38,901 nucleotides of DNA from Candidatus Parcubacteria bacterium (GCA_026004535.1 BPJI01000001.1:390523-429423); one strand, 5' to 3'; counted from the first letter of the stretch, positions 3 through 37,676 are shown. Made by a program: numbers and translations. The notes: generated from the sequence alone by a model not told the origin.

Positions 3-338
3 CTTTACAAAAAATTTGAACCACCAAAATTAAAAAAAGAAGAGATTTTGAATTTAGAAGAAGAAATTAAAAAAATTGAAACAAAAGTGCCTTCTCATAA
101 ATTTATTATTTATGGTAGTAATAAAGATTCTGCTTGGCTTGATTATTTAAGAGCAGTAACAAGAAGAGTTGAAAGAAGAATAGTGAAATTTCTTAGCCAC
201 GGATTTACGCGGATTCCTAAACAGATTAACACTGATGATATTTTAGCTTATCTTAATAGGCTTTCAAGTTATTTTTATGCTTTAGCAAGATTTATCTGTT
301 ATAATAAGAAAATTAAAGAAAAAGAACCTTGGTACTAA
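3..338 (+). CDS. pduO: PduO-type cob(I)alamin adenosyltransferase, 5'-truncated by window edge
   Basis: Frame open from position 3; RAVTRRVERR and YLNRLSSYFYALAR match the PduO/MMAB C-terminal motifs. Confidence 0.8.
   Translation, partial: LYKKFEPPKLKKEEILNLEEEIKKIETKVPSHKFIIYGSNKDSAWLDYLRAVTRRVERRIVKFLSHGFTRIPKQINTDDILAYLNRLSSYFYALARFICYNKKIKEKEPWY
196..237 (+). repeat. CACGGAT-family half element, in frame inside pduO
   Basis: gccacggatttacgcggattcctaaacagattaacactgat, read as SHGFTRIPKQINTD; same motif as 12661-12840. Confidence 0.7.
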
Positions 339-383
339 AATAGAAGGTCGAATTTTATAAAGAAAAATTAAAACCTCAGAAAA

Positions 384-947
384 ATGAATATAGTTTATAT
401 CGTCTTAGGCGTTTTATTTTTGTTTATTATTTATTTGATTTATATCTATAATCGACTTGTTAGTAAAAGAGAGCAAGTTAAAGAATCTTCTTCTGATATT
501 GAAGTTCAACTTAAAAGAAGAGCAGATTTAATTCCTAATTTAGTTGAAACTGTTAAGGGTTATGCTAGTCATGAAAAAGAGGTTTTCGAAAAAGTAACTC
601 AAGCACGAAGTAAAATCTTGGAAGCAAAAACAGTTAAAGAAGGACTGGAAGCAGATAACATGTTAACCTCAGCTTTAAAAACCCTATTTGCAGTGGCTGA
701 AAACTATCCAGATCTAAAAGCTAATCAAAATTTCTTACATTTGCAGCAAGAATTAGTTGATGCTGAAGATAAAATTCAAGCCTCAAGGAGATTTTATAAT
801 GCTGTTTTAAGAGAATATGAAGCTTTCAAACAATCTTTTCCAAATGTTATTATTGCCAATATGTTTAAATTCCCAACTTTTGAATATTATGAACTCGAGG
901 AAGAAGAAAAAACAGCCGCCCAAAAACCTCCTGAAGTAAAATTTTAA
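384..947 (+). CDS. lemA: LemA family protein
   Basis: N-terminal TM helix; QLKRRADLIPNLVETVKGYA, AVAENYPDLKA, RRFYN motifs. Confidence 0.95.
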   Translation: MNIVYIVLGVLFLFIIYLIYIYNRLVSKREQVKESSSDIEVQLKRRADLIPNLVETVKGYASHEKEVFEKVTQARSKILEAKTVKEGLEADNMLTSALKTLFAVAENYPDLKANQNFLHLQQELVDAEDKIQASRRFYNAVLREYEAFKQSFPNVIIANMFKFPTFEYYELEEEEKTAAQKPPEVKF

Positions 948-951
948 AAAC

Positions 952-980
952 TTGACAAAGAAAAATTTTTATGATACTAT
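952..980 (+). promoter_or_regulatory. sigma70-type promoter
   Basis: TTGACA(952-957)-17 nt-TACTAT(975-980) with TG extension at 972-973. Confidence 0.75.
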
Positions 981-1011
981 TTTATTAGAATTCTTAAAAG
1001 AGGTGTAAGCG

Positions 1012-1194
1012 ATGAAAGGTAAGATTTTGCATCGAACAGTAAGATGTGTATGTGGCAACGGCCCCATGGCTCTAGAGTGCCTCATTGGTTCACCGGACAA
1101 CAAAGGAGTTTACCGATCCTATTGGTACCGATGCGATGAATGCGGCAACTGGGCTTTTGTTCGGTTGAACCTTTCGGAGGTATATTATGGATAA
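1012..1194 (+). CDS. Small Cys-rich (zinc-ribbon-like) hypothetical protein
   Basis: SD-like GAGGTG upstream; CVC and CDEC motifs; lies between a promoter and a terminator; GC above background. Confidence 0.55.
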   Translation: MKGKILHRTVRCVCGNGPMALECLIGSPDNKGVYRSYWYRCDECGNWAFVRLNLSEVYYG

Positions 1195-1313
1195 ATCATT
1201 GAGCTCAAGCAAAATCCGATGCAGCTATCCAGGCTGGCGTGGATATTGGGTTGTCAATTCTTTCTCAGTTGTTTAATAGGAAAGGAGGTAAGAAGAACAA
1301 GAAATAAAAATTT

Positions 1314-1342
1314 AAAGCGGAAGGGATTCCTCTCCGTTTTTT
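1314..1342 (+). terminator. Probable intrinsic terminator
   Basis: aaagcggaagggattcctctccgtttttt, imperfect GC stem followed by T run. Confidence 0.6.
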
Positions 1343-1425
1343 GTAAAGAAAAAGTTTGCTAAATAAAAATAATAATTCAAAATCTTAATATGAAGCAAAT
1401 TTTAAACAAAATCTTTTAATAAATT

Positions 1426-35065: not shown

Positions 35066-35072
35066 TTAAAAA

Positions 35073-35756
35073 ATGCTAGTCGTTAAGAACATTACTAAGA
35101 TTTATTCTCCTAATATCATTGCTTTAGATAATATTAGTTTTGAGATTAATGCTGGTGAATTTGTTTTATTAATTGGTCGTTCGGGAGCAGGGAAGACAAC
35201 TATTTTAAAAATTTTAAGACGAGAAGAGGAGCCTACTCGAGGCCAAATTTATTTTAAAAATAGAAATTTATTAGAACTTTCAAGAAGAAGATTAGGTGAA
35301 ATTAGAAGAAAAATTGCTGCTATTCATCAGGGCTTTAAACTTTTAAACAAGAAAACAGTTTACGAAAATATTGCTTTACCATTAGAAATTTTAAATAAAT
35401 CAGCTAAGGATATCAAAAATGAAGTTTACCAAGTTGCCGAAAAATTAAAAATCAAAGCTAAATTAAACCAATTAGTTGAAACTTTATCTGGTGGTGAAAA
35501 ACAAAAAGTATGTTTAGCTAGATGTTTAGTGGCTAAGCCAGAAATTATTCTAGCTGATGAACCAACGGGTAATCTCGATCCAATTGCAACTTATGAAATT
35601 ATCAATATTCTTAAAGAGATAAATAAAGAGGGAATAAGTATTATTTTAGCAACTCATAGTAGGGAAATTGTTGAAAGTTTAAAAACAAGGACCTTAACTT
35701 TAAATGATGGTCGTTTGATTAGAGACGAAAATCCTGGTAAATATACTTTGGTATAA
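35073..35756 (+). CDS. ftsE: Cell division ATP-binding protein FtsE
   Basis: GRSGAGKT, LSGGE, ADEPTGNLDP; followed by ftsX. Confidence 0.92.
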   Translation: MLVVKNITKIYSPNIIALDNISFEINAGEFVLLIGRSGAGKTTILKILRREEEPTRGQIYFKNRNLLELSRRRLGEIRRKIAAIHQGFKLLNKKTVYENIALPLEILNKSAKDIKNEVYQVAEKLKIKAKLNQLVETLSGGEKQKVCLARCLVAKPEIILADEPTGNLDPIATYEIINILKEINKEGISIILATHSREIVESLKTRTLTLNDGRLIRDENPGKYTLV

Positions 35757-36661
35757 TGTCTAAGCTGAAAAAAATTTTAAAATACGGCTATGATTTATTT
35801 TGGCAGGAAAAAATTATTTCTTTAATTAATATTGGCACAACCATTTTGGTTGCTCTTTTTCTTTGGTTTGGTTTCTTGAGTTTTTATTTTTTTAATCAAA
35901 TGATTGCTTATTTACAAGAAAGATTGGATTTTTCAATTTATTTCAGGTCAAATATTAATCGTGAAGAAATTTTAAAATTACAAAAAATTTTGCAAAACTT
36001 TCCTGGAGTTAAAGAGGTTGAATTCGTACCTCAAGAAGTTGCTCTAAAAAAATTTCAACAAGAGGCAAGAGCAAACCCAGTTATTACCAGAGCCTTAAAA
36101 GAACTTCAAACTAATCCCTTAGTTGATTATCTGATTGTTCGAACTGATAATTCTGAAATTTATCCTCAAATTGCTGATTATATTGAAAAGTCTACCTATA
36201 GAGCGTATATTGATTATATTAGTTATTTTGAAAATCAAAAAGTAATTAAAAAAATTATTTCTATTTCAAATCAGACAAAATTTTTAATTTCGATTTTACT
36301 TATTGTTATTTTGATTTTTTCAGCTTTAATAATTTTTAATACTATTTTAGCTTCAATTTATTCTCAAAGAGAAGAAATTGAAGTATTAAGAATCATTGGA
36401 GCAGGGAATTGGTTTATTCGAGTCCCATTTTTTATTTATATCTTGATTTTTTCTTTCTTAGGTTATATAATTGCTTTAGGAACTTTGATACTATTTTTAA
36501 TGAAAACAGAAGACTTTTGGCCCACAATTGTTTCTAATTTTCAACCATCAATTTTTATTGCTGATAATTTTTTTGTTTTAAATGGAATTGCTTTCGGTTT
36601 AATTTTGTTAATCAATTTTGTTTCAGCTTTTATTGCCATGGAAAAATATATTAAAATATAA
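35756..36661 (+). CDS. ftsX: Cell division permease FtsX
   Basis: Four-TM topology, REEIEVLRIIGA.NWFIRVPF. Confidence 0.9.
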   Translation: MSKLKKILKYGYDLFWQEKIISLINIGTTILVALFLWFGFLSFYFFNQMIAYLQERLDFSIYFRSNINREEILKLQKILQNFPGVKEVEFVPQEVALKKFQQEARANPVITRALKELQTNPLVDYLIVRTDNSEIYPQIADYIEKSTYRAYIDYISYFENQKVIKKIISISNQTKFLISILLIVILIFSALIIFNTILASIYSQREEIEVLRIIGAGNWFIRVPFFIYILIFSFLGYIIALGTLILFLMKTEDFWPTIVSNFQPSIFIADNFFVLNGIAFGLILLINFVSAFIAMEKYIKI

Positions 36662-36669
36662 TAATTATC

Positions 36670-36968
36670 TACCCGGATAATCAACCGGATAGATTACCCG
36701 GATGAATACCGGATATTAAAATGTTTACCCAATAAATGCCGGATTATTTTACCCAGATGATTACCGGATAAATCCGGGTTCATATCCGGGTAGTATTATC
36801 CAGTCTAAATATGAGTAAATTCATCCGGTGTGCATCTGGGTAGTTAATAATCCGGTTTATAATCCGGGTAACCTATCCGGTAAAAATCAGGGTAACTTAT
36901 CCGGTTAATATCCGAGTAGTTCTATCCGGTCTAAATCCGGGTAGCTGTATCCGGTTTAGATCCGGGTA
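36670..36968. repeat. CCGGAT-family fold-back element (copy 5)
   Basis: Starts acccggataatcaaccggatagattacccggatgaataccggata, almost identical to the copy 1 start; long inverted arm. Confidence 0.95.
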
Positions 36969-36978
36969 AAATATATAA

Positions 36979-37533
36979 ATGGAAAAAACATTAGTTTTAA
37001 TTAAGCCAGATGGAGTTGAAAGAGGTTTAGTTGGTCAAATAATTTCTCGTTTTGAAAGGGCTGGTCTTAAAATTATCGGTTTAGGCATTGTCAAGCCTAA
37101 TAAAAAATTGATTGACAAACATTACCCCAAAGACAGAGCTTGGATCGAAAATTTGGGTTATAATTTAATTAGAACGGCTGAAGAAGCAAAAGTAAAAATT
37201 GATTTGAAGAAGGATTATGGAGTTAATAACGTTTATGAGTTGGGTCTTAAAATCAGAAATTGGCTGATTGATTTTATGTCTTCAGGACGAGTTGTAAAAA
37301 TTGCTCTCGAAGGACCACAAGCAATAATGGTTGTAAGAAAATTAGTTGGCAAAACAATTCCTTTCTTAGCCGAACCAGGTACAATTCGAGGAGATTTTTC
37401 AATTGATAATCCTTTGTTGGCTAATCTAGAAAAAAGACCAATTAAAAATTTAGTTCATGCCTCAGGAAATAAAAAAGAAGCAGAATATGAATTAAAATTA
37501 TGGTTTAAAAAGGACGAATTAATTAAATATTAA
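36979..37533 (+). CDS. ndk: Nucleoside diphosphate kinase
   Basis: TLVLIKPDGV, PGTIRGDF, NLVHAS. Confidence 0.95.
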   Translation: MEKTLVLIKPDGVERGLVGQIISRFERAGLKIIGLGIVKPNKKLIDKHYPKDRAWIENLGYNLIRTAEEAKVKIDLKKDYGVNNVYELGLKIRNWLIDFMSSGRVVKIALEGPQAIMVVRKLVGKTIPFLAEPGTIRGDFSIDNPLLANLEKRPIKNLVHASGNKKEAEYELKLWFKKDELIKY

Positions 37534-37542
37534 AAATATAAT

Positions 37543-37676
37543 TACCCGGATTTAAACCGGATAGGACTACCCGGATTTTTACCGGATAAGTTACCGAGAT
37601 TTAAACCGGATGATTTATAAAATATTTTTAATCCTGTTGGTTATCCGGGTAGATATATCCGGCAATCATCTGGGTA
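37543..37676. repeat. CCGGAT-family fold-back element (copy 6)
   Basis: Same units; centre gatgatttataaaatatttttaatcc resembles the copy 2 centre. Confidence 0.9.

Follow-up and report, generated by a model that had tools for sequence, protein, structure and literature searches.

Fold-back arrays of short tandem motifs in the spacers and genes of a Candidatus Parcubacteria genome and their association with small nuclease and four-helix-bundle genes

Introduction

Repetitive extragenic palindromes (REPs), the bacterial interspersed mosaic elements (BIMEs) and the REP doublets (REPINs) that accompany REP-associated tyrosine transposases (RAYTs) are presented in the cited sections of PMC3116915 and PMC3337134 as many gene-less hairpin repeats, mostly intergenic and falling into lineage-specific families; the same repeats stand on either side of a single-copy protein gene, the elements are mosaic and nested, and there is no clear target duplication. 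The palindromic elements of Rickettsia, as portrayed in part of PMC10969869, are in-frame palindromic repeats of a fixed ~150 bp in unrelated housekeeping genes, apparently translated and of several families. Passages of PMC4990558 and PMC11270868 describe the intervening sequences of 23S rRNA, which hold an S23p/PF05635 open reading frame (ORF) in an inverted-repeat stem loop and are regarded as selfish; the latter source, again in part, reports PF05635 in rRNA insertions of the candidate phyla radiation (CPR), and a passage of PMC10053308 likens this family to Avd, a protein of diversity-generating retroelements (DGRs). In the portion cited here, a HEPN survey (PMC3710099) does not mention the 23S family. 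In this work we describe a stretch of 38,901 nucleotides (nt) of a Candidatus Parcubacteria genome (the window; G000:C1:390523-429423), in which fold-back arrays of short tandem motifs occupy gene spacers and interrupt genes. We think it probable, though far from settled, that these arrays are gene-less copies of selfish fold-back elements that are copied in trans, most likely by a small nuclease.

The genome (844 kb, 16 contigs, 30% GC) belongs to a genus otherwise unrepresented among reference genomes, and the genomes of its relatives measure 0.3-1.3 Mb. A reading of the window from its sequence alone (the sequence-only reading) had proposed that the arrays are cargo-less members of a mobile or self-amplifying element class, each family perhaps read by its own protein.

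Architecture of the arrays

All arrays follow one plan, in which a run of short motifs is followed by a loop and a run of the reverse-complement motifs, some copies having one arm only. They were recovered alike by Tandem Repeats Finder, an inverted-repeat finder and 6-mer clustering; a maximal-order Markov 7-mer scan masked the signal, and a clustering test was used instead. The 19 catalogued arrays lie between positions 198 and 37682 and add up to 3,010 nt, or 7.7% of the window. The pair CCGGAT-N5-CCGGAT (at most one mismatch) occurs 42 times in the window against 0.03 expected, a number reached in 0 of 100 shuffles; CAGAAC-N5-CAGAAC (at most two mismatches) occurs 11 times against 1.17 expected, and genome-wide clustering of the CCGGAT 6-mer gives a z score above 100. 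A chance origin of the arrays is excluded. The fold-back architecture seen in the sequence-only reading is thereby real, and its family counts (CCGGAT 6, CACGGAT 4, CAGAAC/CAGAC 6-7, ACGGAA 2, CGAATT 4) were judged to match those of the catalogue: CCGGAT 6, CACGGAT 4, CAGAAC 4 (5 with the outer arms at 13541-13786), ACGGAA 2 and CGAATT/CGAGTT 3. The arrays are listed below without strand assignment; L213 and L214 are contigs of relatives and X1 is a second assembly, all introduced further on.

198..241: one-arm array of the CACGGAT class, within the Cob_adeno_trans ORF (3..338), from sequence and Pfam
4333..4412: CAGAAC/ACGCAGAAC fold-back, filling the HtpX/IleRS spacer; in L213 the genes abut and the element is absent
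5043..5165: CAGAAC fold-back, in frame in IleRS; a 123-nt gap in L213, bridged by an X1 contig
8014..8278: CCGGAT fold-back of 5 + 11 motifs, filling the IleRS/map spacer; empty in L213 and L214; −127 kcal/mol, z −15
9376..9728: CCGGAT fold-back of ~12 + 7 motifs, downstream of map; empty in L213
9745..9776: CGAGTT/CGAATT-class reverse arm, upstream of efp; absent from L213
10366..10416: CGAGTT/CGAATT-class forward arm, between efp and a tRNA; absent from L213
12659..13019: CACGGAT fold-back of 11 + 7 motifs with a 27-nt dimer, splitting the DUF763 gene into two ORFs
13541..13786: composite of an ACGGAA fold-back enclosed by ACAGAA arms, plus a short palindrome, in the DUF763/Mpg spacer; absent from L213
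14214..14290: one-arm CACAGAT/CACGGAT array, in frame in Mpg, whose Pfam match falls into two stretches; absent from L213
15517..15650: ACGGAA/GCGGAA fold-back within a glycerate-kinase-like gene (DUF4147/MOFRL), in frame; absent from L213
21743..21820: CAGAAC fold-back, in frame in a FAD-linked oxidase gene
22892..23212: CCGGAT fold-back, filling the oxidase/murB spacer
26350..26452: CGAATT fold-back with 8-nt period, in the rsmH/ftsI spacer; the four-helix-bundle gene at C1:356399 has arms of this motif class
28772..28802: one-arm CAGAAC array in rpe, from sequence and Pfam
29314..29478: CCGGAT fold-back, filling the rpe/pcm spacer
32001..32096: one-arm CACGGAT array with 6 motifs, lying in frame within the TrkA_N domain of a Kef-type antiporter; the Pfam match to TrkA_N begins at profile position 22, behind the insert
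36668..36972: CCGGAT fold-back, filling the ftsX/ndk spacer
37538..37682: CCGGAT fold-back with conserved loop, downstream of ndk

Two motifs together form the actual repeat unit, a dimer of 21-27 nt. For CCGGAT it consists of a TACCCGGAT core, ~4 nt, a ACCGGATA core and ~5 nt, with spacings of 11 and 13-14 nt; the spacings are 10 and 17 nt for CACGGAT, 9 and 12 for ACGGAA, 10-11 for CAGAAC and 8 for CGAATT. The pairing of motifs at 10-11 nt, about one DNA turn, had been noticed for CCGGAT, CACGGAT and CAGAAC in the sequence-only reading; it stands, and applies within the pair. Units are built on non-palindromic cores of 8-9 nt, repeated 3-13 times per arm, and the core motifs are invariant while the spacers between them vary. 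Genome-wide there are 54 CCGGAT clusters of fixed polarity, forward motifs always coming first and complements second. Contig C1 (556 kb) holds 53 of these clusters and C13 one, the remaining 14 contigs having none; the CCGGAT-free contigs may stem from another strain, replicon or organism.

Complete window elements fold with −16 to −144 kcal/mol (z −3 to −17 versus shuffles), the exception being the degenerate element at 4338-4409 (z +0.7), and elsewhere on C1 folds reach −176 kcal/mol. Sense and antisense RNA folding of the elements showed no asymmetry (13 versus 13, p 0.58) and no G-U strand bias. The spacers of opposite arms match each other no better than they match units of other elements (best partner 0.25 versus 0.33, small sample). 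Because cores are invariant and spacers variable, the spacers of opposite arms show no extra complementarity, RNA strand bias is lacking, polarity is fixed and spacing is close to a helical turn, the evidence supports arrays that are read at the DNA level by a protein rather than plain hairpins.

An independent assembly of run X1, which is probably the source sample, was made with another assembler and supports the arrays in part: it bridges three elements with 0 differences, including the IleRS insert (contig 4000-5207), while the long CCGGAT arrays are fragmented in it and parts are without bridging contigs. Among the contigs listed for a further run, X2, none reaches the insert sites. That the arrays are assembly artefacts might be argued from the many joints at which long CCGGAT arrays break the second assembly and from contig C13, which ends in an array. 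Such an origin is scarcely credible, given the three elements bridged by the second assembler, the reading frames that continue through the inserts and the recurrence of the same architecture in dozens of other genomes.

Insertion into spacers and genes

The empty-site evidence rests on two contigs of relatives, L213, a single 17-kb metagenome contig, and L214, a single 2-kb one. L213 is syntenic with window positions 3416-15874 at 75-85% nucleotide identity, and its genes abut or overlap in this region. Eight of nine comparable element sites are empty there (HtpX/IleRS, IleRS in-gene, IleRS/map, map/efp, efp/tRNA, DUF763/Mpg, Mpg in-gene and glycerate-kinase in-gene), most of them lacking a seed motif. 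Occupancy at orthologous loci is therefore not identical among relatives, which the sequence-only reading had singled out as the comparison to make.

The ninth site, in the linker of DUF763, is occupied in L213 by another element (10536-10690). This element has ACGCAGAC arms on the outside and CCGAAT dimers on the inside, and it stays in frame within a continuous ORF of 414 amino acids (aa). The inner motif differs from the CCGGAT of the present genome by one base, changed in every unit. In G022 this linker contains a one-arm ACGCGAAC array, in G015 an insert of 50 aa, and between ARRYHW and EEPH different inserts are found in four lineages (L213, window 12659-13019, L298 and L294). The linker is therefore a recurrent, permissive site.

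Farther relatives give the same picture. The IleRS insert (query residues ~108-146) is missing in 15 of 16 relatives; G003 (locus L160) has an unrelated insert of ~30 residues at the same position. The glycerate-kinase insert (residues 333-371) is missing in all eight relatives that have the gene. A scan with the CCGGAT dimer pattern found 92 matches in the own genome and none in 40 relatives. The arrays are thus recent insertions that fill once-abutting gene junctions and permissive protein loops. Together with the termini and loop shared between copies, the empty sites support the proposal that the elements are mobile or self-amplifying.

It could be held that the arrays serve the host as structured spacers in the manner of REP/BIME sequences, acting as terminators, mRNA stabilisers or nucleoid sites and being retained for that function. 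CCGGAT elements do fill whole spacers of co-directional genes, ending 7-13 nt before start codons, and their hairpins are very stable. This explanation is nevertheless quite unlikely: neither L213, where the genes abut, nor 40 relatives have the elements, related families occur within unrelated proteins and divide DUF763 in two, and RNA folding is without strand asymmetry.

The CCGGAT elements are copies of one another. They have common, inverted termini, and 14 copies have a common loop of 18-19 nt, eight in one orientation and six in the opposite one. At least 10 CCGGAT elements are nested in outer inverted units of 28 nt (e.g., C1:458635-458894) that contain ACGCAGAC and CAGCTGC and occur in up to four tandem copies, a mosaic hierarchy of the BIME kind. 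Unit number differs from copy to copy and also between the two arms of a copy, and the peptide of the IleRS insert is 50-53% identical to three other in-gene inserts of the genome. The 140 nt at window positions 9421-9560 repeat those at 8123-8262 exactly, in inverted orientation. This copy links two successive CCGGAT elements, the right arm of the first and the left arm of the second, on either side of map, and suggests gene conversion between elements or a potential to invert map. Growth of each array in place by slippage, from a chance motif pair and without any movement, would account for the variation in unit number between copies and arms; it is highly improbable in view of the termini, loops and outer 28-nt units common to copies at different loci, the exact inverted copy that connects two elements and the empty sites of L213, mostly without a seed motif.

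In-frame insertions affect unrelated proteins, namely, IleRS, the glycerate-kinase-like protein, the FAD oxidase, Mpg, Kef, Dtd and LepA. In the DUF763 gene the two halves resolved by Pfam cover profile positions 1-177 (ORF1) and 174-319 (ORF2). The host frame is the sole open frame in all three in-gene fold-backs tested (IleRS, glycerate-kinase-like and FAD oxidase), and all three frames are closed in 6 of 6 intergenic CCGGAT elements. In-gene copies persist only where the host frame stays open, and the inserts are therefore probably translated, as judged from their reading frames.

An alternative at the RNA level would have the arms pair in the transcript and RNase III remove the hairpin as in 23S rRNA, leaving the in-gene copies untranslated. 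The folds are stable, and the rRNA intervening sequences are defined, in the cited parts of PMC4990558 and PMC11270868, by the same protein family and a hairpin-with-ORF layout. Excision would not need an open host frame, yet this is the only one that in-gene copies keep; moreover, cutting without ligation would destroy the mRNA, and the G-U strand bias is missing. We consider this alternative very unlikely.

A short GC-rich palindrome of the AAGACGTCGTACGTCTT type at 13541-13561 adjoins the ACGGAA element, and a near variant of it adjoins a four-helix-bundle pseudogene (L007, ~2020-2045).

Genes between the arms

The search for copies with an ORF in the loop, called for by the sequence-only reading, found one nuclease gene and five four-helix-bundle genes. 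The nuclease gene (C1:241475-241816), the only PF13366/TIGR04256 GxxExxY gene of the genome, lies exactly between a CCGGAT arm and its complement, and the whole unit is inserted in frame after residue 17 of the D-Tyr-tRNA deacylase gene dtd. It matches TIGR04256 with an E value of 1.8e-29 and PF13366 with 9.2e-28, and the PD-(D/E)XK catalytic residues E26, D65, E75 and K77 are kept and invariant. The predicted model, with a predicted local distance difference test score (pLDDT) of 92, is closest to Cas4 SSO0001 (E 2.4e-4) and resembles the cores of Cas4 and lambda exonuclease; a sequence search of PDB with the nuclease gave 0 matches. This copy is without the conserved loop of the gene-less CCGGAT copies.

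Each of the five PF05635/TIGR02436 genes for Avd-like four-helix-bundle proteins has arms with a motif of its own, in one case of the CGAATT/CGAGTT class present in the window. Two contain an in-frame TAA (C1:333782-334099 and 356399-356704), and in the first of these the arms to either side differ from each other, pointing to decay or a chimera. The proposed association of one family with one protein is supported only in part: CCGGAT goes with the sole nuclease gene and CGAATT with one bundle gene.

The association of arms with both gene families extends through the order, in which PF05635 is found in 104 of 151 genomes and PF13366 in 54. Arms were scored as a 5-mer present at least twice on the left and its complement at least twice on the right. 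By this score arms are present at 24 of 29 bundle genes, against 5 of 55 shifted controls, and at 24 of 28 nuclease genes, against 4 of 47. Bundle-type arms are contiguous repeats of 7-8 nt and very varied in sequence. Nuclease-type arms have 8-nt cores at 10-12-nt spacing with a common C-G-C/A-N-G-A (CGC-N-GA-like) core, which resembles four of the five window families. In the relative G007, ACGCAGAC arms surround the nuclease gene and about seven further ACGCAGAC arrays are gene-less. On plasmids, GxxExxY genes of Treponema and Fusobacteria are flanked by CACGGAT-type motifs, and one from a Bacteroidota plasmid is flanked by another tandem motif. The link to GxxExxY and four-helix-bundle genes, which the sequence-only reading had mentioned for other genomes, is thus found in the own genome, in the order and on plasmids of three other phyla. 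In the nuclease tree, a supported clade (95/99) of nine members has TACGAAT/CGCTAAT-type arms, and the rest have CGCNGA-type arms.

Nuclease genes often stand in frame at one conserved site, as in recG at four loci (L186, L189, L190 and L193) and in lepA at five (L188, L191, L196, L202 and L207), in genomes of several families. This recurrence is homing-like behaviour. In the own lepA that nuclease site is empty, and a gene-less CCGGAT element is in frame elsewhere in the gene. The arrays might accordingly be landing pads that spread alone or through host replication and repair, the nuclease and bundle genes being separate selfish genes that home into the loops and the gene-less copies being empty targets. 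Two unrelated gene families within one architecture, the identical lepA and recG sites in several genomes and the lack of the conserved loop in the nuclease-bearing copy would all fit. We regard landing pads as unlikely, since they leave the spread of the arrays unexplained, the motif class of the arms tracks gene family and clade, and two kinds of gene were not observed within one array family.

Neighbouring features of the window

The genes of the window are nearly all housekeeping genes on the + strand. Three tRNAs, one of them at 10439-10523, are the sole Rfam matches at gathering score, and the Rfam scan found no rRNA in the window. Positions 950-1930 are richer in GC (up to ~60%) and contain small ORFs and an inverted repeat, GGAGGGTC/GACCCTC, at 1722-1801; Rfam gave only chance-level matches on 950-1950. 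At 10602-12139 a DNA methylase (N6_N4_Mtase) and an adjoining unassigned ORF look like a mobile restriction-modification module. X2 contigs over 10791-12374 show 1-17 differences, neighbouring genes there differ by 10-15%, and L213 has other genes at this place. The N-terminal and C-terminal halves of transketolase are separate ORFs (15880-18978), with a 405-aa PG_binding_1 ORF between them that overlaps the second half.

Interpretation

If the arrays are gene-less copies of selfish fold-back elements, as we think probable, each arm would be a head-to-tail array of one short motif, with the two arms facing each other, and full-length members would carry one small gene in the loop. The motif arrays may serve as stacked binding sites, about one helical turn apart, for the protein of the element. 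The single nuclease between CCGGAT arms would then copy some 50 CCGGAT elements in trans, the CACGGAT, CAGAAC and ACGGAA families would have been orphaned by the loss of their nuclease elements, and the CGAATT family would go with a four-helix-bundle element.

Several points weigh against this interpretation. Consistent target-site duplication was absent from the eight sites compared with L213, with one possible duplication of ~15 nt at map/efp; this result neither favours nor reveals a mechanism. Three of the five window families (CACGGAT, CAGAAC and ACGGAA) have no gene-bearing copy in the genome. In G008 arms surround the nuclease gene and there are no further arrays; therefore, presence of the gene does not ensure spread. 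The own nuclease sits on a very long tree branch (1.54) and is embedded in dtd, and could for these reasons be in decay. The clade-to-motif association can be explained equally well by co-inheritance. Arms of one kind occur with two unrelated proteins, so it may be the arms that move, with the genes as their cargo. Gene locations across the genome come from a crude ORF map.

On a wider scale, we tentatively propose, as a possibility that falls short of being probable, that the genes for GxxExxY nucleases and Avd-like bundle proteins are the signature of a class of prokaryotic mobile elements that is widespread and as yet undescribed. Members of this class would have expandable inverted arrays of protein-binding motifs as ends and gene-less copies, would insert in frame in essential genes (lepA, recG, dtd and ileS) and would also be the source of rRNA intervening sequences. 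If this is true, two very common protein families of "function unknown", annotated today only by motif or as "23S rRNA intervening-sequence protein", would gain a role, and rRNA intervening sequences would share their origin with a broader element class. Colonisation would also be shown to reach sub-megabase genomes, to judge from the share of the window taken up by elements and from spacers, absent in a close relative, that consist wholly of them. IleRS, LepA, Dtd and other proteins with in-frame copies provide a natural experiment on insertion tolerance, and arrays and small partner proteins together make up a protein-DNA recognition system that is compact and open to testing.

Comparison with known systems

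As far as compared, the arrays match no repeat family described so far, in keeping with the sequence-only reading. The element sequences have no match in Rfam, plasmids or phages, and in 5,426 E. coli genomes a single chance-level match (E 3) was the only likeness to REP/BIME sequences. No description of motif-array arms around these genes was found in the literature, including the cited parts of PMC8934634, PMC10053308, PMC11270868, PMC10969869, PMC8700078 and PMC3936711; the tables of PMC11270868, a CPR insertion study, may bear on it.

Transposable elements of the miniature inverted-repeat kind (MITEs) derived from insertion sequences were rejected. The gene-bearing copies carry only PF13366 or PF05635, and the 29 window ORFs scanned yielded neither a transposase nor an integrase, in agreement with the earlier statement that the window has no transposase or integrase; the whole genome was searched for PF01797 and PF00078. 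Inteins and free-standing homing endonuclease genes resemble the present system in having a small nuclease in frame at the same lepA or recG site in several genomes, and differ from it in that the inserts here are flanked by motif arrays and gene-less copies exist at many sites. An intein was rejected, as the dtd ORF matches only PDDEXK_3 and Tyr_Deacylase (Pfam, E ≤ 0.001) and no Hint or splicing domain. Eukaryotic Foldback transposons and the subterminal arrays of hAT and CACTA elements likewise have long inverted arms of tandem short repeats, variable in length and mostly gene-less; they are, however, eukaryotic and have unrelated transposases.

The 23S rRNA intervening sequences have the same protein family within an inverted-repeat stem loop, a layout found here at the five bundle genes of the genome and at 24 of 29 loci in the order. 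Unlike them, the present elements lie between or inside protein genes, their arms are tandem motif arrays, and gene-less copies predominate.

The sequence-only reading had offered REP/BIME arrays and Rickettsia palindromic elements as analogues. Both are apt as analogies, and membership fails for both. With the Rickettsia elements, as portrayed in the part of PMC10969869 cited above, the arrays share in-frame insertion of several families in unrelated, apparently translated genes; those elements have a fixed length, whereas here length and unit number vary, and the present arrays are further set apart, by description, in having gene-bearing relatives and in belonging to another phylum. Membership in the REP/BIME-RAYT group was rejected on the lack of the Y1 (HUH) transposase PF01797 (0 in the own genome, with a control search positive in 6 of 14 genomes), the non-palindromic dimers and the lack of E. 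coli likeness; reverse transcriptase PF00078 is likewise absent from the own genome. The partner here is a PD-(D/E)XK nuclease or a four-helix bundle instead of a Y1/HUH transposase, the arms are expandable direct-repeat arrays instead of the one 20-40-bp palindrome of REPs (cited sections of PMC3116915 and PMC3337134), and many copies are inside genes. All traits given above for REPIN-RAYT nevertheless have their counterpart here, including one protein gene, of PF13366, between CCGGAT arms alongside the 54 CCGGAT clusters, and a role of the nuclease would parallel that of a RAYT serving REPINs, with an unrelated enzyme. By analogy, the system appears to work most like REPIN-RAYT, and its in-gene copies appear to behave like the palindromic elements of Rickettsia.

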